Of a stretch of DNA of 64,000 nt, positions 1,865 through 57,697 are shown piece by piece. The stretch is from NCBI GenBank assembly GCA_013154005.1, contig JAADDK010000002.1, positions 1,729 through 65,728 on the forward strand. Reading direction: 5' to 3'. This DNA is from Methanobacteriota archaeon. Its GTDB lineage: Archaea; Thermoplasmatota; Thermoplasmata; Thermoplasmatales; Aciduliprofundaceae. Under the pieces are notes generated by a model. It did no database searches. It was not told where the DNA came from and saw only the letters and a list, made by a program, of their open reading frames with translations. The stretch's first letter is position 1. Each line of letters opens with the position of its first letter. The position numbers and the translations under genes are program-made.

Positions 1865-4800
1865 TTGCCAACGCCATATTTAAGCCGGCTAAAACTCGAA
1901 AAAGAGCTTGAGAAAAAAGCGCAGATGCTTAGAGAGAAGAAGGAAAAGTGCGATGCTTTGATGAGTGATGTGGAAAAGTACATGCAGATTTTAGAGGGCC
2001 GAATCGCTATTGATGATTATAAAGAGCAATACAAAAAGGGCCGTGAACTGTACGATATGAAGGACATGGATGCGGCCATAGAGGTTATGAAATCACTGCA
2101 TAGCGAGCTTCTTTCCAAACTCAAAGAGGTTTATAAAGAAGATAAGGAAAAAATTGAGAAAGTAATGGAAATGCTGTCCGGTGAGGACCTTGCGAAAATC
2201 CGTGCAGACCTTCGTGAAGGTGAAGAATATCTTGAAACCTCCCCCGAAAAGAGTTTTGAGATTCTGGATTCGATATCAAGCCGGCTGAAGGTAATTGTGG
2301 AAGAGAATATTGGTCATATGAAGATGGAGCTCGAGGGCTCTTTAGGGTCTATAGAGGGATTTGACTGGGTTAAAAAAGAGGTGGCGGAGGTTGGCGACGA
2401 GCCCACCACCGAGGCTCTTTTGAAATTACGGGAGATTCGGGACAGAGCCGTTAAAAAGGTGGAAGAGAAAATAAACATGGCGGTGAAGCGTGTAAACACA
2501 ATTGTGGAAATAGCCCACTCCGCACATTTCAATCTACCAATCGATAAAAGCCTGGAAAATAAGATATCGGAGCTGATGAGTGAGGGCAACTACGCAGGGG
2601 CACTCAGGGTTGCCGATGAATATCTTGCCAGTGCGAAGAAGGCATTTGAGTTCTTTTATCGCAAACTCTACGATATTGCCCGGCGCATAGTTGAAGAGGG
2701 CAAGGCCATGGATATAGAGATTGACAGTATAATGAGAATGCTGGAGCAATCGCGTAAAAAGTACGAAGAGGACAATTTTGAAGAAGCGGTAGCACTGATT
2801 AAAAAATCCACTGAAGAAGCGGAAAAATTGAAGGTTCAGAAAGTCATGGATACCATGAAAAAAGCGAGAGACATTTTCCTTCAGGCGAAATCGCAGGGGA
2901 TAGATATTGAGCCGTTTCTAAAAAGGATGGATAATGCGCGAAATTTCCTTAAAATAGGGAAGCCGAAGAGAGCATACGATATAATTCTGGAAACTCTTGA
3001 CATGGTTGAACGGAAGAAGAATCTGTACGAGCAGCTCAAATCGGAGATAAAGAGAATCAAAGAAATTGTTGAGGACCTGCGCAAGGAGAATATAGTGCTG
3101 GAGGGCGTGGATGAGAGTATTGCCAAGATAGATGCAGAGATAGAAAAGAGTCCTGAGCGTGCGGAGAAGATGGTGAACGAGCTTCGCGCAGGTATAAAAT
3201 CAAGCCTTAGGGATATTGCGCAGACACTTTACGGGGATATAGAAAAGCTCATTGATCTTGGAGAAAAAGAGGGGCTGGTGCTCGAAGATATGCGCCTCGC
3301 ACTGCGAGATATCAAGGGCCAGATTACCGATGAGAGCTATCGTGATGCCATTCTGGAGTTGCGAAAGATAGAAGAAGAGCTTTACTCGCGTACAGAAGCG
3401 TATCTTGAGGACATAGAAAAGCGCACATCCAAGTTCGAGGATAAAGATATAAAAGCAAAAATCGAAGCGGTTAAGAAGGATCTGGAAAATGCTGAATTAG
3501 AGGCGGCGTTTGAGAAGCTTGGCGAGATTCGGGAAAGGATATTCGAGATAGAGAGCAAGGGCTATATCGAGAGAATCAAAAAGCTTCGCGATGAGGTTGA
3601 GTTTTTGCGTGGCGCGGGCGGGAATGTGACCGAGATACTCAGTTACGTTGAAAGGGCTGAGGTTGCACTTAAAAAGAAAGATATAGTGCGCGTGGAGGAT
3701 TATATTTCTCGCAGTGAAGAAACGCTCAAAAATGTTGAGTCGCTGGTGGCGAAAGAAACGTTTGATTCTGCTAAGGCAATAGCGGCTGCCGCAAAAAGAA
3801 TTGGAGTGAACATATCTGCACAGGGTATACTCGGACTGCTTAAGAAGGCAAAGGAGAGCATAGAAAAAGGAGAGTATCATCGCTCCATAGAGTATTCGCT
3901 GGAAGCGAAGAAGAAATCCAAAGAGCTGAGAGATAAGGCGGAGCATGCTTACTCACTGTTGGTCAATGCGGCAAAACGCGTATCACGCATAAAGGAGATG
4001 AACGGCAAGGTTGACGAGCTGGCCAAGTTGCTGGTTGAAGCGAAGAAGAGTCTGGAAGATAACGATTTTGAGCGTGTAGAAAAACTTTCAAATGAGTGCA
4101 TACAGAAGGCGGATAAGATTGAGAAAAAGACGAAGATTGAGCAGATGCGCAAGGAGATAGATTCAATAGGTAAGGTGATGAGTGAGCTTGGACTCGCGGA
4201 TATATACAAGCAGAAGAGCCGGGAGTTTTACAGAAAATACGAGGATATGAAATACGATGAGCTTCCGCCAATTGGAGAGAAGGTGCTAAGCGAGCTTCGA
4301 GAGTACGTGGAGACGATACTCACTGATTATATAGGCAAGATTGAAACGGATATTTACGATGCCAAGGGCAAGGGATACAATCTGGACATCAATATGCAGG
4401 ACTTGGAAAACGCCGCGGACCTGTTCATAAAGAGGAAGTACATGGAATCGCTTTATCTGCTTAAGAAGCTGGAGAACCAGATTGCGGCCATTTATGAACG
4501 AAATGAGCGCATGGAGGAGTTGAAGAGCGAAATCAAAAAGTACATGGATATGGCGGTGTCGCTGGGTATAGATACCACGGAGTACAAGCGCCGGCTCGCG
4601 GAGCTGGAGCAGGAGAAGGATCTCAAAGTGGCTCAGAAAAAGGCGAAGAAAATCATATCGGATATAGAGGGTGCGCTTTACAAGAAGGTGCGCGCGCTCA
4701 TGGTTAAGGTGGAGAAGGAGTTAGACGCCATGCGCCGTCGTGGAGAAGATATAACTGCGCCTGAGAATATATTGAATAAGGCGAAAGATAAACTTAAAGA

Positions 4801-6718
4801 TAAAAAATACGTGGAATCTCTGAATCTGGTTATGAATGCGGTGGGTGAGATAGAGAAATACGAGATACAGAAGAACACCGCATACGGCATATTGAAGCGG
4901 CTGGGAGATAAGATAAAAGTTATGCAGAACGTGCTACCCAAGAAGATAGTGGACGAGTACGAGTACTCCAAGAAGCTGTTTCTTAAAGGTCTGTACGAGC
5001 AGTCTATAGAGCGCTCGATGAAGGTAAGCGAGGAGATATCCGAGATTGAGCGCATACTCAATTACATAAAGGAGAAGAACAAGCAGATTCGCGAGATGGT
5101 TATGCGTGCGCATCATCTTGGCATGGATGTGCGCGATGTGATTCGCATATTCAACAAGGCGAAGGAGGAGTTCAAGAACATGCATTATCAGGAATCTCTC
5201 AAGCTTGTGGACCAGTGCTATGCAGAGGCAAAATTGCTGATGATAGATGCCATGAACAAGTACAAGGGTGCGTACAGCCGCATGCTGAGTATGATGAAGC
5301 GCATGCACATAGATGATTATTTCAAGGATGATATTAGACAGATGGAGGAGTTGTTTGACAAGGGCGATTATGATTCAATAAAGGTAAAGTTGAGCGAGAT
5401 GAACAAAGCGCTCAACCAGAAGTTAGGTGAGCTGAGCAACGAGATGCTGAAAGAGTTTGCGGAGAAGAAGGCTCTGTTCAAGAGCATGCACGTGGATGCG
5501 GGCATAGATTTTGATAAAGAGGAGATGAAGCTTCGCGAATACCGAGCAAAAGATTTCAACAAGTTCTTTGAATATTACGCGTCACTTAACGAAAAGATAG
5601 AGTCGTACATGCCCAAGATTATCCGGAAGAAGGTGGAGGAGCTCAAATCTGAGTTTGATAAGTATGAGAGATACGGAGCGAACACCGAAGAATATCATTC
5701 CCGTCTTTACGAGATAATCTCCGAGATGGAAGAAAAAGATTACAACGAGATTTTCAAAATGCTAAGAGAGGTGGAAAACAAGTTCCGTGTTTACATAGAC
5801 GAGTATGTTAAGACTTTAATAGAGCGGGTTAAGAAGCGCGTGTCTGAGTTCAGCGAGGCGAAGGCTAACGAATACGTTGAGCGCATGGAAAAGCTTCGCA
5901 GTGTTGGTAACTACATCGATGCGATACGGGTTTACGAAGAGGCGAGCAATTTCGTGGGCAGATACAAAGTGTTCCGTGAAGATTTCGGGAAGAAGGTGGA
6001 AGAAGTTAAAGACCGGCTCCGGTTTGCTCTTTCGCTGGGATTGAAGGTTGGAGACCTTATCACCAAGCTGAAAGAAATAGAAGAGCATGCACCGGAGGAT
6101 ATGGAGCGTGCAAATCTGGAGCTGAAGGACCTCAAATCAGAGGTAAATAAGATGATAGACGCACTGGAGCCGCGCATTGAAGTGGATATCGAGCTTGGTG
6201 AGGAGTCGGGTGGGGTGATAAAAGCCACGCTGGGTGTGAAGAACACCGGTGACGTGGAGGCTCAGAACGTGCAGATACATATACGGGGAGCGCTCATCGC
6301 GGACAAGCCCATAGAGGTGCTCAAAGTGGATAAGGGGGCCAGAGAGGAAGTTGAAGCGACCCTGCGGATTGGAAAGGGCAATAAAGTTAGCATTGTGGCG
6401 CATTACAATCGGTTTGATGGTAAGGAGTACACGTATTCTCAGGAGTTCGAGGTGTCCGTGGAGAAGCCGAAGGAGGAGACCAAAGAGCCGAAAAAAGAGA
6501 AGCACGAGGAAAAAGAGAAGAGCAAGGAAGAAAGCAAGGGCTATCACATAGAGAAAGCCAAGGAGAAGGTTAAGTGTTCGTTCTGCCGTGGCACGATACT
6601 GCCCGCGATGAACCTCGATGTGGTAATCTGCGATAACTGCGGTGCAGTGTACCACGTGCCATGCGCGAAGAGGATAAAGAAGTGCAAGGTTTGCGGACAG
6701 GAGTTCAAGTTTGATTGA
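1865..6718 (+). CDS. Giant (1617 aa) helical-repeat protein with a C-terminal beta-sandwich (CARDB-like) domain and a C4HC3 zinc finger; function unknown
   Basis: TTG start is preceded by GGAGGT 7 nt upstream. It is a single long Lys/Glu-rich ORF with recurrent modules such as K-x2-G-[IV]-D ... G-x-[YF]-x2-[AS]. A beta-rich segment reads IEVDIELGEESGGVIKATLGVKNTGDVEAQNVQIHIRG.... The C-terminus is CSFC-x14-CDNC-x4-H-x2-C-x6-CKVC. No signal peptide or TM helix is evident. Confidence 0.85.
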   Translation: MPTPYLSRLKLEKELEKKAQMLREKKEKCDALMSDVEKYMQILEGRIAIDDYKEQYKKGRELYDMKDMDAAIEVMKSLHSELLSKLKEVYKEDKEKIEKVMEMLSGEDLAKIRADLREGEEYLETSPEKSFEILDSISSRLKVIVEENIGHMKMELEGSLGSIEGFDWVKKEVAEVGDEPTTEALLKLREIRDRAVKKVEEKINMAVKRVNTIVEIAHSAHFNLPIDKSLENKISELMSEGNYAGALRVADEYLASAKKAFEFFYRKLYDIARRIVEEGKAMDIEIDSIMRMLEQSRKKYEEDNFEEAVALIKKSTEEAEKLKVQKVMDTMKKARDIFLQAKSQGIDIEPFLKRMDNARNFLKIGKPKRAYDIILETLDMVERKKNLYEQLKSEIKRIKEIVEDLRKENIVLEGVDESIAKIDAEIEKSPERAEKMVNELRAGIKSSLRDIAQTLYGDIEKLIDLGEKEGLVLEDMRLALRDIKGQITDESYRDAILELRKIEEELYSRTEAYLEDIEKRTSKFEDKDIKAKIEAVKKDLENAELEAAFEKLGEIRERIFEIESKGYIERIKKLRDEVEFLRGAGGNVTEILSYVERAEVALKKKDIVRVEDYISRSEETLKNVESLVAKETFDSAKAIAAAAKRIGVNISAQGILGLLKKAKESIEKGEYHRSIEYSLEAKKKSKELRDKAEHAYSLLVNAAKRVSRIKEMNGKVDELAKLLVEAKKSLEDNDFERVEKLSNECIQKADKIEKKTKIEQMRKEIDSIGKVMSELGLADIYKQKSREFYRKYEDMKYDELPPIGEKVLSELREYVETILTDYIGKIETDIYDAKGKGYNLDINMQDLENAADLFIKRKYMESLYLLKKLENQIAAIYERNERMEELKSEIKKYMDMAVSLGIDTTEYKRRLAELEQEKDLKVAQKKAKKIISDIEGALYKKVRALMVKVEKELDAMRRRGEDITAPENILNKAKDKLKDKKYVESLNLVMNAVGEIEKYEIQKNTAYGILKRLGDKIKVMQNVLPKKIVDEYEYSKKLFLKGLYEQSIERSMKVSEEISEIERILNYIKEKNKQIREMVMRAHHLGMDVRDVIRIFNKAKEEFKNMHYQESLKLVDQCYAEAKLLMIDAMNKYKGAYSRMLSMMKRMHIDDYFKDDIRQMEELFDKGDYDSIKVKLSEMNKALNQKLGELSNEMLKEFAEKKALFKSMHVDAGIDFDKEEMKLREYRAKDFNKFFEYYASLNEKIESYMPKIIRKKVEELKSEFDKYERYGANTEEYHSRLYEIISEMEEKDYNEIFKMLREVENKFRVYIDEYVKTLIERVKKRVSEFSEAKANEYVERMEKLRSVGNYIDAIRVYEEASNFVGRYKVFREDFGKKVEEVKDRLRFALSLGLKVGDLITKLKEIEEHAPEDMERANLELKDLKSEVNKMIDALEPRIEVDIELGEESGGVIKATLGVKNTGDVEAQNVQIHIRGALIADKPIEVLKVDKGAREEVEATLRIGKGNKVSIVAHYNRFDGKEYTYSQEFEVSVEKPKEETKEPKKEKHEEKEKSKEESKGYHIEKAKEKVKCSFCRGTILPAMNLDVVICDNCGAVYHVPCAKRIKKCKVCGQEFKFD

Positions 6719-19708: not shown

Positions 19709-21841
19709 ATGCTTTTCCCAGCCAAGATGGCTGAAGTCGAGGTCCTTGTTCACAACTCGGTGAAATATCAGGTTCTTAAGGTTATGCAGCGGAATGCGTT
19801 TATCCATCTCACTCAGCATAATCTTCCTGTGGAGAATGCAAAGCCCTCTCCAGATGTCAACGTTCTGGTCGATTATAGCTTCAGACTTTCAAAGTTGATG
19901 TCCGTGCTGGATATCGCAAAAGTGAAAAAGGAAGGTATCAAGGAAATACTAAATCCCACAGCTCCCGAGCGTTTTCCAGTTAAAGATATGAATAGGGAGG
20001 AGGTACTTCAAGAGACTAAGAAACTTCTCGATGAGCTCGAGGAGGAAATACAGAGTATTGGTGAGGAGTGGGAGAAAATAGCCGAGGTTGAAGATAAACT
20101 GGAAACGAGACTCAGATATGCCCGTATGCTGTTGGGACTCGATTTTGATGTTTCATATCTCGGCACGGGTAAATATGCAATTATTACTGCAGGTACAGTA
20201 AAGGAGCTCGAACCGCTTTATAAGATTAAATCGCAAAATAAACTTGCGTTCTGGCATCGAGTAGAAGGCAAAAAAAATCCACTGTATATTGTGGTGGTGG
20301 CGTATTTAATCGAGGATAGAAAGGAGGTTGAATCAGCACTTAGATTTGCAAATTTCTCAGAGTTCGATTTAAGTGGGTTCAGGGGTAAGCCTGTGGAGGT
20401 CATAAAAGATATTGAGAACAGACTGGCAGCTGCTCAGAAAGAGCGCAAGAAACTTTTGTCGCAAATTGGGGAACTCAGAAAAAAGCATTATGGAAGAATT
20501 GCTGGTCTCTGGGATAACATCGAAAATGAAAAAATTAAAGAAGAAGCTCACAACAAAATGGGTTCAACAAAATACACAACTGTCATAAGAGGATATATTC
20601 AGAAAAAGCGTTTGGATGAGGCAATAGCCAAAATAAATGAAGTGTCAAAAGGACTTGCTTATATATCATGGAAAGACGCAGAGGGAGATAAGGTTCCAAC
20701 TGCGTTTAACAATCCCATTTTTCTCAGGCCTTTCCAGGCGTTTGTGGAGATGTATTCTATTCCGAAGTACGGGTATATAGAACCCACTGTGATAATTGCA
20801 CCTTTATTTGTTGCATATTTCGGGTTGACTCTGGGCGATGCTGGCTACGGTTTTATAATGGCAGTTTTGGGATATCTGCTTTGGTTTCATATTGGAAGAT
20901 ACAACTGGACAAACCGGACACTGGGTAAAATTCTGTTTGCCTCGGGGATCTCCGCGATAGTGTTTGGTCTGATACAGGGTAGCATATTTGGCCCGTTAAA
21001 CTCTTACAATCCTCTTTATCCATGGATTCATTATAAGCCAATTCTGGATGCCATGAACGACCCGGTCACGCTGCTGGTCATAGCGTTGATAGTCGGTATA
21101 GCACAGATTTCGCTGGGGCTTATACTGGGTGCGTATCATCATCTCAAGCACAAAAACTATGGTGATTTTCTCACTTCAGAGCTTTCGTGGTTTTTAATTT
21201 TGCCTGCGGGCGGGGCACTCATCGGCTACTATTTTGGGTGGTGGACCGTGCCCGTGATGATACAGAACATTTCATGGGTTATGCTGCTCATAGGATTTGC
21301 GCTTCTTTCGGGTGTGCCCGGGCATATGGTTAATAAAAAATCGGAAATCAACGCCATGGCGTTCTTTGACGTCACCGGGATGATTGGAGACTGGCTCTCG
21401 TATTCTCGACTTCTTGCACTTGATCTGGCCACATCCGGTCTGGCGCTTACAATAAATCTCTTTGCTGATATCATTCGGGGAATGGTTGTGGGCGCAGGGA
21501 GTATGGTATGTTGCATGCCACTTTTAATTATTGGCTTTGCGTTGTTTGCGTTCGTGGCGCGCACCAGAGATAAGATGAAAATAGGCATTGCGGCAGTTCT
21601 TCTTCTGTTCGGTGCAGTGGGTATGGTAAGTTTATCTGCGGCGCTGTGGCTGTTTATCGGGGTATTCCTGATTGCGGGGCACATTGGCAACGCGATTCTG
21701 CAATCGCTGGGCTCTTTTGTGCATTCTTTGAGGTTACAGTACGTGGAATTCTTCTCAAAATTCTATGAGGGAGAAGGTGTGAAGTTTGAACCGTTTAGAG
21801 AAATTAGGAAGCACTCGCGTGTTGGAGGTGTGAAAAAATGA
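19709..21841 (+). CDS. atpI: A-type ATP synthase subunit I (stator a-subunit)
   Basis: A soluble coiled-coil N-terminal half of about 340 aa is followed by a multi-TM C-terminal half with the conserved SYSRLLALDLATSGLA motif. Confidence 0.9.
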   Translation: MLFPAKMAEVEVLVHNSVKYQVLKVMQRNAFIHLTQHNLPVENAKPSPDVNVLVDYSFRLSKLMSVLDIAKVKKEGIKEILNPTAPERFPVKDMNREEVLQETKKLLDELEEEIQSIGEEWEKIAEVEDKLETRLRYARMLLGLDFDVSYLGTGKYAIITAGTVKELEPLYKIKSQNKLAFWHRVEGKKNPLYIVVVAYLIEDRKEVESALRFANFSEFDLSGFRGKPVEVIKDIENRLAAAQKERKKLLSQIGELRKKHYGRIAGLWDNIENEKIKEEAHNKMGSTKYTTVIRGYIQKKRLDEAIAKINEVSKGLAYISWKDAEGDKVPTAFNNPIFLRPFQAFVEMYSIPKYGYIEPTVIIAPLFVAYFGLTLGDAGYGFIMAVLGYLLWFHIGRYNWTNRTLGKILFASGISAIVFGLIQGSIFGPLNSYNPLYPWIHYKPILDAMNDPVTLLVIALIVGIAQISLGLILGAYHHLKHKNYGDFLTSELSWFLILPAGGALIGYYFGWWTVPVMIQNISWVMLLIGFALLSGVPGHMVNKKSEINAMAFFDVTGMIGDWLSYSRLLALDLATSGLALTINLFADIIRGMVVGAGSMVCCMPLLIIGFALFAFVARTRDKMKIGIAAVLLLFGAVGMVSLSAALWLFIGVFLIAGHIGNAILQSLGSFVHSLRLQYVEFFSKFYEGEGVKFEPFREIRKHSRVGGVKK

Positions 21842-23172
21842 AAAAATTGATGCTGGCTTTGCTGCTCATGCTTTTGCTGAGCGGAGTGGCGTACGGTGGA
21901 GAGGTTAATGTGACGCATTACACGTGGTATAAAACGGATACAAAAGAGACCACGTCTGTGGAATCCACCACCTTTGTGGTTGGTGATACGTATGTGTTTG
22001 AGTACAGTGATAACGGTAAGGTTTTGGATAATGTGAGCTGGGTTATCACAAACATGAATGATGGAACTGAGCATGTGTATGTGGGCAATCCGGTAAGGGT
22101 GCAGTTCCAGGAGGCCGCGTATTATAACATCACTGTTAAAGAGGGTAACAATGTGGTTTATACCCACAAGATAAAAGTCCACGATGGGCCTCTGGGTGCG
22201 TATCTTGCGCTAATCGGTGCGGGTATTGCGGTGGGTGCATCGGGTATGGGAGCGGCAATCGGTGTGGGTATTGCTGGGGCCAGCGGTACTGCTGCAATCG
22301 CTGAAGATCCTAAAAGATTTAGAAACGCGCTCATATTTCAGGCATTTCCGCAGACACAGGCTATTTACGGGCTGCTTGTGGGTATAATGATTCTGATGTA
22401 CACGCATGCGTTCGCGTCTACACTGCATGTAAACATCGACGTGCCGGTGGGCGCCGGACTTATCGCGCTTGGTGCAGGATTGTCAGTGGGTATTGCGGGG
22501 CTCAGCGCCATAGGTCAGGGTATTGTGGCTGGTACAGGTATAGGTGTGACCCGAAAAGAGGGTACGTTCGGTAAGGCTGTGGTGTTCACAGTGCTGCCAG
22601 AAACCCAGGCAATTTACGGTTTGCTTATTGCAATTCTTCTGCTTCAGGGACTAACCTGGATGATGAACAAGTCGCTATCACCATCGTATATGCTTGGCAT
22701 GGGTATCGCTGCGGTGGGTGTCGGTCTCGGCATGGGACTTAGCGGTATCACGGCCATAGGTCAGGGCATTGCTGCCGCAGGTGGTTCTGCTGCCACCACA
22801 CAGAATCCAAAGGCTTTCTCCTCATCAATTATATTTGCGGTGCTTCCAGAAACCCAGTCCATATACGCGCTTCTGGCGGGTATACTTGTAATTACGTCTA
22901 TGAACCTGATGGGTGGGGTGCCTCACTTTGCGCCGTATCAGACGGTGTTAATAGGTCTCGGGGTTCTGGGCATAGGTTTCTCGGTAGGTCTGGCAGGCAT
23001 AAGCGGTATCGGACAGGGTATAACCGCCGGAGCCGGTGCAGCGGCGTATGTGAAGAATCCAGGTACCAGAAGCCGAGCAATTATACTGTCTGTGATGAGC
23101 GAAACTTTTGCCATATTCGGATTGTTGATGGCGATACTGATTATGATGTCTCTGGGCATATTTGGAGGATGA
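21838..23172 (+). CDS. atpK: A-type ATP synthase proteolipid subunit K: four fused hairpins preceded by a signal peptide and a beta-rich ectodomain of about 95 aa
   Basis: The ATGA overlap with the atpI stop is at 21838-21841. N-terminus is MKKLMLALLLMLLLSGVAYG. The four hairpins end in AFPQTQAIYG (Gln), VLPETQAIYG, VLPETQSIYA and VMSETFAIFG. Confidence 0.85.
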   Translation: MKKLMLALLLMLLLSGVAYGGEVNVTHYTWYKTDTKETTSVESTTFVVGDTYVFEYSDNGKVLDNVSWVITNMNDGTEHVYVGNPVRVQFQEAAYYNITVKEGNNVVYTHKIKVHDGPLGAYLALIGAGIAVGASGMGAAIGVGIAGASGTAAIAEDPKRFRNALIFQAFPQTQAIYGLLVGIMILMYTHAFASTLHVNIDVPVGAGLIALGAGLSVGIAGLSAIGQGIVAGTGIGVTRKEGTFGKAVVFTVLPETQAIYGLLIAILLLQGLTWMMNKSLSPSYMLGMGIAAVGVGLGMGLSGITAIGQGIAAAGGSAATTQNPKAFSSSIIFAVLPETQSIYALLAGILVITSMNLMGGVPHFAPYQTVLIGLGVLGIGFSVGLAGISGIGQGITAGAGAAAYVKNPGTRSRAIILSVMSETFAIFGLLMAILIMMSLGIFGG

Positions 23173-41660: not shown

Positions 41661-41973
41661 TACATGATACATTGGTATTTAAATTTTGTGGTTTCTGGTT
41701 GAGAGGCGGCCCGCGGGTTGCCCGTTGATTATCTGAAAATTATGAACCTGATCAAGGGGATAGGTTCGAAGAATTCAATATCACAAAAATTTTCTTTGGT
41801 GTGAAGGGACACCCAGGTTTCCCTTTCAAAATCCTTCCTTTTAGAAGTGTTAGTTGAATATGATGCATCAAGCACATACCACATTCGTGGGCATGTTTGC
41901 AGCCCTTCGGGTCACACATTTTCCCTTACAAAAACATTCCTTAAAGATTCATGGGGTTTGGAAAAGTGGTCAG

Positions 41974-50493: not shown

Positions 50494-50598
50494 GTGCACA
50501 CCAATTAAGCAATGCGGGCATAACATATAAACTTTTTTAAAAAATAATGGCGGAGACAAAGAAATTTTTAAATATCTGCGTCTATATCGGGGTTACAG

Positions 50599-50714
50599 AG
50601 CGGGGTGGGGTAGCCAGGAAATCCCGCCGGGCTCATATCCGCAGCCTGCGAGGACTACACCTCGCCTGTGAGGGGGAGACCCGGAGATCGGTGGTTCAAA
50701 TCCACCCCCCGCTA
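50599..50714 (+). tRNA. Initiator-type tRNA-Met (CAU) with a 41-nt intron at the canonical 37/38 position
   Basis: Exons are AGCGGGGTGGGGTAGCCAGGAAATCCCGCCGGGCTCATA and ACCCGGAGATCGGTGGTTCAAATCCACCCCCCGCTA. It has the A1:U72 pair and three G:C pairs closing the anticodon stem, both archaeal initiator hallmarks. TATA TTTTTAAATAT is centred about 29 nt upstream. Confidence 0.85.
50638..50678 (+). other. tRNA intron
   Basis: TCCGCAGCCTGCGAGGACTACACCTCGCCTGTGAGGGGGAG interrupts the anticodon loop after A37 and contains an internal hairpin CGAGG-ACTACA-CCTCG. Confidence 0.7.
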
Positions 50715-50926
50715 CTTTTCATCAACATTCAAGCAGCGTTGGGTTCTATCAAAAATGCCCTGCATTTTCTCTATCCACCCCCCGCTACTCCTTTTGTCGT
50801 AGCGTTGGGTACACTCTAAAATATGCGATATTTTCTCGTTCCACCCCCCGCTACTTTTCATCAACATTCAAGCAGCGTGGGGTTCTATCAAAAATGCCCT
50901 GCATTTTCTCTATCCACCCCCCCGGG
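50701..50926 (+). repeat. Tandem array of 66-73-bp units, each beginning with the 14-nt 3' terminus of the adjacent tRNA-Met
   Basis: TCCACCCCCCGCTA occurs at 50701 (within the tRNA), 50774 and 50840. A variant TCCACCCCCCC occurs at 50913. The 59-nt spacers after 50701 and 50840 differ at one position. Confidence 0.9.
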
Positions 50927-50971
50927 CCTCTGGAATGAAAGAATAATATACTCCCACTCTTTTATCGCGGT

Positions 50972-51925
50972 GTGTTTGACAATATACCCACGGTGCTCAA
51001 GTCGGAGGAAATCGTAGATAAGATGTTTCGTCGTGCCAAGAAGGTGGAGGTATCATACTCACGCAATCGTCTTGCCATGGAGAAGAATCTCAGCATTGCA
51101 AAAATTTATACGGCGAGAGATGTGGCTGTGAGCACACTTAGAAAGTATGTGAACACTTTTCCGTACATTAACAAGCTGCACCCCTTTTATCGCTCACTTC
51201 TCGATTTGCTCATTGATAAAAACATGTACAAAAAAAGCCTGTCTTCCGTGAACTGGGCTGCTGGACGCATAGAATCCCTTGCGGCAAAATACGCATCTAA
51301 AATTAAAGGTGTGGGGCGGGTGGAAGAGGCGCTGAAATTTAGAAAACAGTTTTACGGCCGTGCGGCTTCGATACTCAAAGATATACACAGAGAGCTGGAG
51401 TATCTGAACCATGCGCGTGATGTGATGCGCAAGCTCCCCGATGTGGACGTCTCTTTGCCCACTGTGGTGATTGCCGGGTATCCAAATGTTGGTAAATCGG
51501 AGCTGGTGAGCAGAATCAGCACCGCCAGGCCGGAGATAGCAAGCTATCCTTTTACTACCAAGGGTATAATAATGGGGCATCTGGAACGGGGTGGAAAAAT
51601 CGTGCAGATTATAGACACTCCCGGACTCTTGGACCGGCCCCTTGAGGAGCGAAATAAGATTGAGAGGCAGGGTATTCTGGCGCTGCGTTATCTGGCTACT
51701 GGCATAGTGTTCGTGCTGGACCCTTCGGAAACATGCGGCTACTCACTGGAAGATCAGGAAAAGCTGCTGGCAGAGGTGCGCAGGGATTTTCAGGTTCCCA
51801 TCATTGAAGTGGAAAACAAGGCGGATTTGCTCAGAACGGATAGCAAGCGTTTGAAAATATCTGCCAAGACCGGGGAGGGTGTGGAAGAGCTGGTTGATGC
51901 GATTTTTGAGATGGTGCGCGTGTGA
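50972..51925 (+). CDS. NOG1-family GTP-binding protein
   Basis: Has a NOG1-type N-terminal helical domain. G motifs are GYPNVGKSELV, TTKGI, DTPGLLDRP and ENKADL. The GTG start lies about 25 nt downstream of a TATA-like AATAATATAC. Confidence 0.8.
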   Translation: MFDNIPTVLKSEEIVDKMFRRAKKVEVSYSRNRLAMEKNLSIAKIYTARDVAVSTLRKYVNTFPYINKLHPFYRSLLDLLIDKNMYKKSLSSVNWAAGRIESLAAKYASKIKGVGRVEEALKFRKQFYGRAASILKDIHRELEYLNHARDVMRKLPDVDVSLPTVVIAGYPNVGKSELVSRISTARPEIASYPFTTKGIIMGHLERGGKIVQIIDTPGLLDRPLEERNKIERQGILALRYLATGIVFVLDPSETCGYSLEDQEKLLAEVRRDFQVPIIEVENKADLLRTDSKRLKISAKTGEGVEELVDAIFEMVRV

Positions 51926-52019
51926 GAATTGAGCATCAGAGGATTATTTTTCGTGAATTCGCGCATATGATAAAAATTCCGAATTGTAGCGAAAATTATT
52001 TGCGCAAAACCTGAAAGGA

Positions 52020-52228
52020 TGCAGGCGCCGGGATTCTACAACCACGTTCGTGGTTGCGCTCTCATCGCAGATGCTCACTCCAACCACGTTCGTGGTTGAG
52101 TTCACAGCAAGATGCTCGCTACTACCACATTCGTGGTTGAGCTCAAAACACTGCGTGTTTTTCGTGAATCCGGGCTAAGGTATTGAAAATGTGTTGGTGC
52201 CTTTCAAAAAACATTCAGGAAGTGGGAG
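52020..52228 (-). repeat. tRNA-Gly 3'-end duplicate plus a partial T-arm copy, enclosing three 41-43-bp tandem units each carrying the palindrome AACCACGTTCGTGGTT
   Basis: TGCAGGCGCCGGGATT at 52020-52035 is identical to 52229-52244 (the tRNA 3' end). GAATCCGGGCTAAGG at 52168-52182 matches the tRNA's GAACCCGGGCTAAGG. Palindromes lie at about 52040-52056, 52082-52098 and 52124-52139. Confidence 0.85.
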
Positions 52229-52301
52229 TGCAGGCGCCGGGATTTGAACCCGGGCTAAGGGCTTGGAAGGCCCTTGTGCTGCCAGACTACACTACGCCTG
52301 C
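52229..52301 (-). tRNA. tRNA-Gly (anticodon UCC)
   Basis: The reverse complement is GCAGGCGTAGTGTAGTCTGGCAGCACAAGGGCCTTCCAAGCCCTTAGCCCGGGTTCAAATCCCGGCGCCTGCA. The cloverleaf has the anticodon loop CTTCCAA. TATA TTTATATA is centred about 29 nt upstream, and an oligo-T follows the 3' end. Confidence 0.9.
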
Positions 52302-56638: not shown

Positions 56639-57340
56639 ATGGGGCTCAGAGAAGACATTGAAGAAAAGATGAAAGAGTGCGAGCTGGTAGTTGTGTACCC
56701 GCAGAGCCCCGTTTATCGAGTTGCATATATGCTCGCCCGCACAGTTTTTCCTGCCATTGAAGAGAACCCGATTGCGCCGGTGTTTGGGTATCGTGGCCGG
56801 ATTTACGGATTTGAAGAAGATGAAAATTTAACGGAGATTCTGGTGCAGAGAGATTATCGAAATGTGTGCCGGATAAATGCCAGAGTGAACTGGAACAAAA
56901 ACCGGGTGCGCGATTTTCTTGCCGTGATGAAAAAATACGATGACGGTCGCGTGTTTTTCAGATACGTGCTTGTGGGGATACTGGGTATAGTTCTCAATCT
57001 GTTTTTCTTTTTTCTCCTCTACATAGTTGTGGGAATAAATGATATTATTGCGCTATTTATAGCGATTGAGCTGAGCATACTTGTAACGTTCTTTGCAAAC
57101 AATTACTGGGTGTATTTCAATCGTGTGTACACGCGCAGTATGGCTTGGAGAATTGGTATGTATCATTTTACAATGCTGGCGGGGATAGTAATCAATGTTG
57201 TCACCTACAAAATACTGTTCTGGATTGGCGAGAATTACCTTCTTGCTGATCTGTTCGGCATACTTCTATCTAGCGTATGGAATTTTTACATGACAAACGT
57301 CCACGTATTCTTCGCGCAGTACCAGAAGATGGAAAAATGA
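56639..57340 (+). CDS. GtrA-like membrane protein with a soluble N-terminal domain of about 100 aa
   Basis: The C-terminal half is FFRYVLVGILGIVLNLFFFFLLY...FFANNYWVYF, as in the GtrA family. Confidence 0.6.
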   Translation: MGLREDIEEKMKECELVVVYPQSPVYRVAYMLARTVFPAIEENPIAPVFGYRGRIYGFEEDENLTEILVQRDYRNVCRINARVNWNKNRVRDFLAVMKKYDDGRVFFRYVLVGILGIVLNLFFFFLLYIVVGINDIIALFIAIELSILVTFFANNYWVYFNRVYTRSMAWRIGMYHFTMLAGIVINVVTYKILFWIGENYLLADLFGILLSSVWNFYMTNVHVFFAQYQKMEK

Positions 57341-57346
57341 GTTTTT

Positions 57347-57486
57347 GAAGCGCGGGGAGGGGGATTTTGAGCCCAAACGGGCGATGAACACCCTCCATAG
57401 TGATTGAACAAAGTGAAAGCGCGGGGAGGGGGATTGCGAGCTGAAAAGTGAGTTTCACCCTCCATAGCGATTGAATGAAATGAAAG
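57347..57486 (-). repeat. Two tandem 67-69-bp units, each carrying a copy of the tRNA-Ser 3' terminus plus trailer
   Basis: GA(A)AGCGCGGGGAGGGGGATT occurs at 57347, 57415 and 57482 (the last is the tRNA itself). Both units also share CACCCTCCATAG(T/C)GATTGAA. Confidence 0.9.
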
Positions 57487-57568
57487 CGCGGGGAGGGGGA
57501 TTTGAACCCCCGCGGGCAATAGCCCAATGGCTTAGCAGGCCATCGCCGTACCGCTCGGCCATCCCCGC
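57487..57568 (-). tRNA. tRNA-Ser (anticodon GCU), long variable arm
   Basis: The reverse complement is GCGGGGATGGCCGAGCGGTACGGCGATGGCCTGCTAAGCCATTGGGCTATTGCCCGCGGGGGTTCAAATCCCCCTCCCCGCG. The anticodon loop is CTGCTAA. TATA TTTTATATAT is centred about 28 nt upstream. Confidence 0.9.
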
Positions 57569-57697
57569 CAGACGGGAAATGTGAGTTTCCATATATAAAA
57601 TTATCCCGAGAGCCTGTTTTATTTTCAGATATTTGCATTGATGAGTATGGATTGGGTAATATGAAAACATTTATCTTAAATAAAGCATGCGGAGTGT

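Follow-up and report, generated by a model that had tools for sequence, protein, structure and literature searches.

The stretch of DNA analysed here, called the window throughout, comprises 64,000 nucleotides of ordinary chromosomal DNA from an uncultured deep-sea-vent archaeon of the DHVE2 group (Aciduliprofundum-like, Thermoplasmata). In the window, the gene of the initiator tRNA (tRNA-iMet) is followed by three short tandem units, each made of a spacer and of a copy, decayed in the last unit, of the 14 terminal nucleotides of the tRNA. Such units are most likely the record of DNA insertion at the tail of the tRNA rather than miniature tRNAs. They may well be DNA-level footprints of a hot spot of site-specific insertion or recombination at the T-loop and 3′ end of the tRNA, later reshaped by unequal exchange, and it is this reading that is tentatively preferred below. 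The feature itself is real and non-random. It is best classed with "tRNA-tail duplication", a known signature of DNA insertion at tRNA genes, as a miniature and iterated form of it.

Several observations carry this reading. The repeats share a boundary in the T-loop, and units are present or absent between relatives as blocks bounded by the repeat. Homologous but diverged units occupy orthologous loci and have decayed in some lineages. Other Thermoplasmata contain larger inserts with the same bounding repeat, and the spacers show no detectable derivation from the tRNA body or from the downstream trailer. Taken together, the T-loop boundary, the repeat-bounded indel, the range of insert sizes, the decay series at tRNA-Ser and the unrelated spacers point to a hot spot of insertion or recombination, followed by exchange and decay. 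tRNA genes are classic landing sites of mobile DNA, and annotated examples usually consist of single long repeats around large elements. Here, the signature is miniature and iterated, it is found at three of the five tRNA genes of one chromosomal stretch, and related arrays are spread across Thermoplasmata.

Arrays behind three tRNA genes of the window

The exact sequence TCCACCCCCCGCTA occurs in the 64 kb at 50701, 50774 and 50840, with no further site. A fourth copy at 50913 (TCCACCCCCCCGGG) matches the others over its first 10-11 nt only, and the start-to-start distances of the four copies are 73, 66 and 73 bp (Table 1). The first and third spacers, A and A′, differ by one mismatch and lie within an 83-nt direct repeat of 99% identity, which would reflect a recent duplication. 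In addition, the motif AGCG(T/G)TGGGT is found once per spacer on the + strand, at 50735, 50801 and 50874; searched on both strands it gives 6 matches, against 0.32 expected by chance. The motif pairs with the downstream ACCC..CGCT in the predicted fold, where an inner 7-bp hairpin forms as well. For the 53-nt core as a single strand, this fold consists of an outer helix with the following repeat, made of 4 bp, a 2x2 loop and 4 bp, then of large loops and the A/T-rich 7-bp hairpin. The recurrence of the tRNA tail with its degenerate last copy, the unit sizes, the near-identity of the outer spacers and the pairable motif had all been described in a reading of the sequence alone, and all were recovered.

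Table 1. Positions in the window of the repeat arrays and of the genes they accompany
Feature	Position	Strand	Description
tRNA-iMet	50599..50714	+	5′ exon 50599-50637; intron 50638-50678; 3′ exon 50679-50714; CCA not encoded
R0	50701..50714	+	14 nt TCCACCCCCCGCTA within the tRNA, T-loop position 60 to discriminator base 73
Unit 1	50715..50787	+	spacer A 50715-50773 (59 nt) and R1 50774-50787; AGCGTTGGGT at 50735-50744; 7-bp hairpin 50752-50768
Unit 2	50788..50853	+	spacer B 50788-50839 (52 nt) and R2 50840-50853; motif 50801-50810; hairpin 50818-50834
Unit 3	50854..50926	+	spacer A′ 50854-50912 and decayed R3* 50913-50926, TCCACCCCCCCGGG
NOG1 GTPase gene	50972-51925		co-oriented with tRNA-iMet; protein identity at most 80% to DHVE2 genomes
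tRNA-Gly(UCC) and array	51947..52301 (tRNA 52228-52301)	-	48-nt linker, then a 3′-half copy split in the T-loop
tRNA-Ser(GCU) and two downstream units	57348..57568 (tRNA 57486-57568)	-	AATCCCCCTCCCCGCGCTT copies at 57484-57502 (in the tRNA), 57417-57435 and 57348-57366

The same architecture had been claimed for two other tRNAs of the window. This holds for tRNA-Ser(GCU), where three copies of AATCCCCCTCCCCGCGCTT recur with a period of 67-69, separated by spacers of 50-52 nt that are 69% identical to each other; the second unit retains a decayed variable arm and T-arm 5′ of its repeat copy. For tRNA-Gly(UCC) it holds in part. There, the copy of the 3′ half is cut exactly in the T-loop into two pieces, CCTTAGCCCGGATTCA (52165-52180) and AATCCCGGCGCCTGCA (52020-52035), by an insert of about 125 nt made of a first small hairpin and of three 41-42-bp units with the hairpin CAACCACGAAYGTGGTTG. 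No tail copy was found in the window behind tRNA-Phe or tRNA-Glu. With three of the five tRNAs affected and similar arrays in other Thermoplasmata, the proposed genome-wide process is plausible.

At tRNA-iMet, tRNA-Ser and tRNA-Gly alike, the repeat starts at tRNA position 58-60 (..TTCAA/ATCC.., the slash marking the cut here and below). It ends at the discriminator base at tRNA-iMet and tRNA-Gly and a few bases beyond it at tRNA-Ser; the repeats measure 14, 16 and 17-19 nt at tRNA-iMet, tRNA-Gly and tRNA-Ser, respectively. Identity of the downstream copies to the 3′ part of the tRNA is 14/14 at 50774 and 50840, 19/19 at 57417 and 57348, and 16/16 at 52020.

Behind some tRNAs, pseudo T-arms are cut exactly between TTCA and AATCC, without duplication. 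These are found in the window at 52020-52188 (- strand) and at two of the loci fetched for comparison (designated L with a number), L155:3999 and L197:5812. Their inserts are chains of small hairpins, all starting with CGA(A/G), and the junctions read CCCGGATTCA/CGAAAAACAC...GTAG/AATCCCGG in the Gly region of the window, GGGGGTTCA/CGAACAAATC.../AATCCCCC in L197 and TTGGGTTCA/CGAGTTAAA.../AATCCCCC in L155. From their sequences, these inserts look like a family of tiny hairpin-ended insertions with TTCA as target, reminiscent of IS200/IS605-type or palindrome-associated elements. A second junction of this kind, TTCA/CGAAAAA, lies downstream of tRNA-Gly at 51947-51964. A genome-wide search for TTCA/CGA junctions returned mostly noise from coding sequences, the relevant matches being those of the Gly region of the window, of L155 and of L197. 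The hairpin core CCACGAATGTGG(TA) of the Gly insert recurs about 80 nt downstream of tRNA-Glu (41879-41890, - strand). With at most one mismatch, the CCACGAATGTGG motif has 5 matches in the window, against 0.41 expected, and all 4 exact ones lie downstream of tRNA-Gly or tRNA-Glu. The first 60 nt or so behind these two tRNAs are weakly similar (z = 3.8).

Orthologous loci in DHVE2 and other Thermoplasmata

The initiator tRNA locus was compared among 12 DHVE2/Aciduliprofundum loci, which were fetched by a 31-nt pattern in the 5′ half of the tRNA and hence independently of any array. Because L098 ends just past the tRNA, 11 of the 12 are readable downstream. A unit is present at one of these 11 and absent from the other 10. 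Among lineages that share the iMet-NOG1 synteny, the window has three units, the species of L002 has one, and L001/L100, L102, L345 and L346 have none. The one-unit state is identical in three independent assemblies (L002, L347 and L348). Between L001 and L002, the flanks are near-identical and the difference consists of exactly a 58-nt spacer and one repeat copy, bounded by the repeat. L001 represents an empty site, and L002, L347 and L348 represent the site occupied by an insert and one repeat.

The L002 unit is homologous to the iMet units of the window (z = 6.4-8.9). By local alignment score it is nearest to spacer B (42, versus 37 for A with B and 34 for A with L002). The cores of A, B and L002 are inseparable by identity (70-73%; 70% for B with A, 72% for unit 2 with the L002 unit), whereas the linkers do differ: that of L002 is 47% identical to the linker of B versus 23% to that of A, and the linker of unit 2 is 47% identical to that of L002 versus 28% to that of unit 1. 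On this evidence, spacer types A and B may already have been distinct when the window and L002 lineages diverged, or may have parted at about that time, in which case the iMet array is old. Among 26 DHVE2 sequences (the window and 25 fetched loci), the unit module is confined to these arrays, and a dispersed miniature transposon was rejected on this ground.

At tRNA-Ser, the gene order is kept over eight DHVE2 loci. The units at tRNA-Ser form a graded series. L188 and L191 have none, L112 has a 33-nt remnant, L184 one unit with decayed T-arm and repeat, L120 one unit with a perfect repeat, and the window two. The Ser spacers of the window, L120 and L184 are homologous to one another (z = 3.6-10.6). 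Since the Ser spacers resemble each other, the iMet spacers resemble each other and there is no similarity across the two sets, each locus has its own inherited spacer family. A single mobile family comprising both kinds of spacers was discarded, as they are dissimilar.

A wider set of at least 119 loci was fetched with the T-arm/acceptor sequence of tRNA-Ser. Among the loci listed, a repeat copy within 500 nt downstream was found at 6 of 69 non-thaumarchaeal loci versus 0 of 50 from Nitrososphaerota. The array-bearing Ser-type loci among those listed (L120, L143, L155, L169, L197 and L199) are mostly from Thermoplasmata and have units of 66-171 nt. Overall, inserts bounded by the same repeat in other Thermoplasmata range from 66 nt to 2.35 kb.

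Individual loci of this set have features of their own. The longest insert, at L171:1127-3482, is a 2.35-kb segment behind tRNA-Ser whose bounding 20-nt repeat (TCAAATCCCCCTCCCCGCGCT) likewise begins within the T-loop. No integrase-like reading frame is apparent in this segment, which may be an integrated element in a degraded state. At L169:5440-5800, two units of 161-164 nt follow tRNA-Ser, each with several perfect hairpins and an inverted 3′ fragment of another tRNA (GGTTCAAATCCAATACTCCCC, opposite strand). In L143, a run of N (masked stretch or scaffold gap) lies between the tRNA-Ser tail and the downstream copy; arrays at tRNA tails may break short-read assemblies. In L197 and L199, the T-arm recurs in inverted orientation at a distance of 27-44 nt from the tRNA, and these copies are perfect (13/13 and 15/15). 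Elsewhere, an inverted copy with even two mismatches was found only in L223, outside the array set. The AGCG..GGGT motif of the iMet units and GGAGGG in the Ser units of the window may be weak equivalents of these inverted copies. Apart from these Ser-type loci, a single tail copy of 21 nt was found in a Methanosarcinales genome (L038), where it follows the iMet gene at a distance of 52 nt.

Origin of the units

A stepwise scenario may be envisaged. An insertion, rather than a purely local process, would have made the first unit by setting a short non-coding segment (52-59 bp at tRNA-iMet) directly behind the tRNA. In doing so, it would duplicate the target from the T-loop to the discriminator base, in a manner resembling attachment-site or target-site duplication. 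The tRNA itself would stay functional because its own copy is kept. Further units would result from later events at the same site and from unequal exchange between repeat copies, of which A and A′ may be an example. Exchange between copies may also remove units cleanly, as the comparison of L001 with L002 would illustrate. Copies that are no longer refreshed would decay, like the terminal copy at 50913 and the Ser units of L184 and L112. The acting enzyme would be a tyrosine integrase, a casposase-like Cas1 or another one, and the units would be without a cellular function.

Partial tRNA copies are, in the textbook case, attachment (att) scars of tyrosine integrases (PMC9897764). In archaeal att repeats, such as those of PYG1 in Pyrococcus yayanosii, a direct copy of the 3′ part stands behind an intact tRNA, sites are occupied or empty and the boundary is fixed inside the tRNA, as is the case here (PMC9897764). 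However, the known cases have one copy of about 40-50 bp that bounds an integrase-encoding element of 9-23 kb (PMC9897764). Here, the copies are 14-19 bp long, they are iterated up to three times and lie 48-59 bp apart, and no element genes were found. Scars of integration and excision had been one of the options raised from the sequence alone. They give the best fit to the T-loop boundary, the repeat-bounded indel and the inserts of 66 nt to 2.35 kb. However, no integrase, casposon or free element was found in the scanned reading frames of the window or in the viral and plasmid collections.

A number of points weigh against this insertion reading. At 66-73 bp, a unit is too small for an integrase to use as a circular substrate. 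For remnants of random deletion, the spacers vary surprisingly little in length (48-66 nt), and they have neither the terminal inverted repeats nor the TCCCC-type ends known for the A. boonei casposon. No domain of an integrase, Cas1/PolB, cas or other mobile-element protein was detected in the roughly 40 reading frames of the window that were scanned. Viral contigs searched for both repeats and the unit core yielded phage tRNA-Met genes, unrelated matches or nothing, and a plasmid BLAST with the iMet array and Gly region gave no match, both collections being poor in archaeal elements. Furthermore, the repeat copies are 93-100% identical and the adjacent TTTTCTC is invariant, versus about 70% identity for the spacer core and 23-47% for the linker (0.64^14, about 0.002). 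The inner hairpin, in which unit 2 shows two compensatory pair changes relative to unit 1, stays paired through three double changes (96% of cells paired), with a covariation score that 7 of 500 shuffles reached, counted over 3 distinct sequences. These properties hint at constraint or at continual homogenisation, neither of which would be expected of mere "dead scars". They may be due to continual homogenisation against the tRNA, to sites that a recombinase recognises, or to a role in the cell, for example in processing, in termination or as a decoy.

Other searches were likewise negative. In metagenomes, the repeat-spacer-repeat arrangement at tRNA-iMet had 0 matches, in a collection that lacks the source contig itself. 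A looser unit pattern had at least 120, none of those listed passing the filter (a tRNA 3′ end nearby, or a repeat copy that runs on into GCTA). The regions 50550-51000 and 57200-57650 yielded no inverted repeats, and the two ends of the spacer, CTTTTC... and ...TCTCTA, do not form an inverted pair. An integron attC-like site was rejected, as GTTRRRY/RYYYAAC ends are absent. A C/D-box small RNA was rejected by eye, C/D boxes at proper spacing being absent.

Among the rival explanations, a local origin without any mobile element is unlikely but has to be considered first. In this model, the tail would have been duplicated together with adjacent DNA, either because replication slipped or switched template at the stable T-arm hairpin or through the kind of unequal crossing-over suggested for E. 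coli tyrT, and exchange would later have changed the copy number. The E. coli tyrTV-rttR locus would be the closest known analogue of a purely local origin. As verified on NC_000913.3, it carries tandem units behind a tRNA that end in its terminal nucleotides. These units are 178 bp long, overlap the last 19 nt of tRNA-Tyr and are homologous (66%) to the spacer between the two full genes tyrT and tyrV. The pairs A/A′ (one mismatch) and Ser units 1/2 (69%, mutually closest) also look like within-lineage duplications, and the perfect inverted T-arm copies of L197 and L199 are a possible product of template switching at near-palindromes. However, the E. coli locus is bacterial and encodes an annotated small RNA (rttR) and a small protein (tpr), whereas the arrays described here have units of 66-73 bp, no second iMet, Ser or Gly gene and spacers unrelated to the trailer, and are known from sequence alone. 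A simple tandem duplication predicts that the spacer equals the trailer after the last copy. Alignments of the spacers with the downstream trailer and the 5′ region of NOG1 are suggestive but below significance, so that a spacer copied from either was rejected and a "tail plus trailer" duplication is unsupported. Moreover, the L002 spacer has no counterpart in L001, and the spacers are unlike the tRNA body. This last result bears equally on the view that each unit is what internal deletion and decay have left of a tandem copy of the entire tRNA gene, put forward in the sequence-only reading and now very improbable. In its favour, AGCG(T/G)TGGGT resembles the 5′ end of the tRNA (AGCGGGGTGGGGT) and pairs with the repeat, a decayed variable arm or T-arm precedes the repeat in Ser unit 2 and in L184, and a duplicate of the 5′ end lies upstream of the iMet gene in L103. 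Yet local alignment of the spacers with the tRNA body, on both strands and against shuffles, was not significant (best uncorrected p = 0.03-0.09), on which ground a spacer derived from a decayed tRNA copy was rejected. A sensitive scan with Rfam families, tRNA included, gave no match on the units at E <= 5, and the model requires a repeat that remained perfect amid sequence decaying to noise. Whole-gene duplication followed by decay is likewise unsupported by the trailer, to which the spacers have no significant similarity either. A metagenome assembly artefact, in which the three units would be a collapsed or chimeric path through the 83-nt repeat, is hardly credible. The contig is indeed found in one assembly only and the A/A′ repeat is near-identical. 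However, the homologous single unit occurs in three independent assemblies of a relative, arrays exist at two more tRNAs of the window and in many unrelated assemblies, and a repeat of 14 nt is not long enough to lead a k-mer assembler astray.

Somewhat less probable than a local origin is that the units are functional, either as structured 3′-trailer RNA (a decoy for tRNA 3′-end enzymes, or a module that acts as a fail-safe in processing or termination) or as a protein-bound DNA site. The covarying inner hairpin described above, with three pairs changed on both sides over 3 distinct sequences, and the conservation of AGCG..GGGT, TTTTCTC and the repeat next to a poorly conserved linker would fit a function. 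So would the T-tracts that each unit adds between the tRNA and the co-oriented NOG1 gene. The fold of unit 1 is better than that of shuffles (z = -3.5 to -4.4), whereas the other units, iMet units 2 and 3 among them, have no such advantage over shuffles (z = -0.6 to -1.8). Of the 11 readable iMet loci, 10 lack a unit, including four lineages with the same gene order, and the units at tRNA-Ser are decaying in L184 and L112; this patchy distribution argues against an essential function, less so against an accessory one. No archaeal promoter-like TATA was seen in the sequence upstream of the units. As for the suggested tRNA-like minihelices, they found no covariance-model match, and both a T-loop and a continuous 12-bp acceptor/T helix are absent from the predicted fold. 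The option is kept at low weight because some blocks are conserved beyond neutral expectation. An integrase of the casposase type (Cas1) is improbable too, appealing as the casposase of DHVE2 is as a lead. In this model, the T-arm would serve as the "leader" and target-site duplication would account for the 14-19-nt copies. The spacers would be mini-casposons or solo ends, and the whole would form a CRISPR-like proto-array. The casposase of A. boonei, from the same archaeal group, targets the 3′ end of tRNA-Pro by reading TCAAATC in the T-loop, with duplications of 14-15 bp that start 8 bp downstream, and can insert very short DNA in vitro (PMC5137440, PMC6614799). Repeated leader-adjacent insertion has been predicted for casposons (PMC5137440), and the Methanosarcina cases, at tRNA-Leu and IR1, include tandem casposons and solo ends (PMC4779613). 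The arrays share with these systems the archaeal group, the T-loop-directed tRNA 3′-end target, the iteration predicted on the leader side and the short remnants (PMC5137440, PMC6614799, PMC4779613). The duplication of 14 nt at tRNA-iMet is of casposon length, those of 16 nt at tRNA-Gly and 17-19 nt at tRNA-Ser are longer. TCAAATC is present in all arrayed tRNAs and in tRNA-Glu, and tRNA-Phe (TCAATTC) has no array. However, the register is wrong, for the repeat starts inside the T-loop, within TCAAATC itself and not 8 bp after it, and the Ser and Gly repeats are 16-19 nt long. The spacers, which lack terminal inverted repeats and TCCCC-type 3′ ends, are homologues inherited at each locus and not captured foreign DNA, and neither Cas1 nor PolB was found nearby, among the scanned reading frames of the window.

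A bolder version may be imagined, with no better prospects: Thermoplasmata would carry an undescribed site-specific insertion system, casposase-like or based on a novel recombinase, that reads the tRNA T-arm as its "leader" and stacks short hairpin-bearing segments, each duplicating 14-19 nt of the tail, into CRISPR-like proto-arrays. If this were true, the conserved repeat, inverted motif and hairpin would be recognition sites of the recombinase. Like CRISPR arrays, the present ones alternate short direct repeats with spacers of similar size beside a fixed "leader" and end in a degenerate repeat. CRISPR arrays are recognised by repeats of 24-47 bp, unrelated spacers and adjacent cas genes. 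In contrast, the repeats here are 14-19 nt long and belong to a tRNA, there are at most three units, the spacers are related (70-99% similar) and inherited, and the scanned frames of the window contain no cas domains.

Returning to the insertion footprints, if the units are scars, they would preserve in the genome an inexpensive record of the frequency of attack on, and repair of, the tRNA tails of these archaea, and a warning to annotators that tRNA fragments may stand behind genuine tRNAs. If an enzyme stacks short inserts beside a tRNA "leader", they would offer a present-day parallel to the transition from casposons to CRISPR that has been proposed. The conserved blocks, together with the recurrent hairpin insertions exactly in the T-loops of pseudo-copies, offer concrete experimental handles.

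The initiator tRNA gene and its surroundings

The contig, JGI 3300005095 Ga0072504_121499, is 70,976 bp long. Its five tRNA genes in the window are those of tRNA-iMet, tRNA-Ser(GCU), tRNA-Gly(UCC), tRNA-Phe and tRNA-Glu. The iMet gene carries a 41-nt intron at position 37/38, and because of this intron it was missed by ARAGORN at default settings and by Rfam scans at the gathering threshold. It was recovered at 48.7 bits in a sensitive Rfam scan and by ARAGORN with introns allowed, and its exon limits were fixed by the intron-less orthologues in L001 and L002.

The intron at 37/38 is polymorphic in DHVE2. It is absent in L001, L002, L098 and L100-L103, of the window-like type (30-41 nt) in L096 and L104, and of another, unrelated type (41-48 nt) in L095, L097, L099 and L105. 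At L103:5782-5846, a second copy of the 13 nt with which the tRNA begins (AGCGGGGTGGGGT) lies 52 nt ahead of the intron-less iMet gene. Next to this copy comes CGAGGAC...TACACCTCGC, a match to the hairpin in the iMet intron of the window, and the whole looks like a remnant of an intron-bearing copy. In L105, L095 and L099, a partial copy of the D-stem and anticodon stem (TCCCGCCGGGCTCA or a diverged form) lies about 10-25 nt upstream of tRNA-iMet; tRNA fragments therefore flank these intron-containing iMet genes on the 5′ side as well.

In a Pfam scan, the roughly 40 reading frames of the window were either of housekeeping type (FtsZ, A-type ATPase, RtcB, SRP receptor, ribosomal and RNA-polymerase subunits, and others) or had no domain match. 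A 1617-aa frame at 1865-6718 has a C-terminal prokaryotic RING finger (Prok-RING_1) as its sole Pfam match. The frame of the A-type ATPase c/K subunit at 21838-23172 (444 aa) contains four ATP-synt_C matches and corresponds to a multiplied proteolipid.

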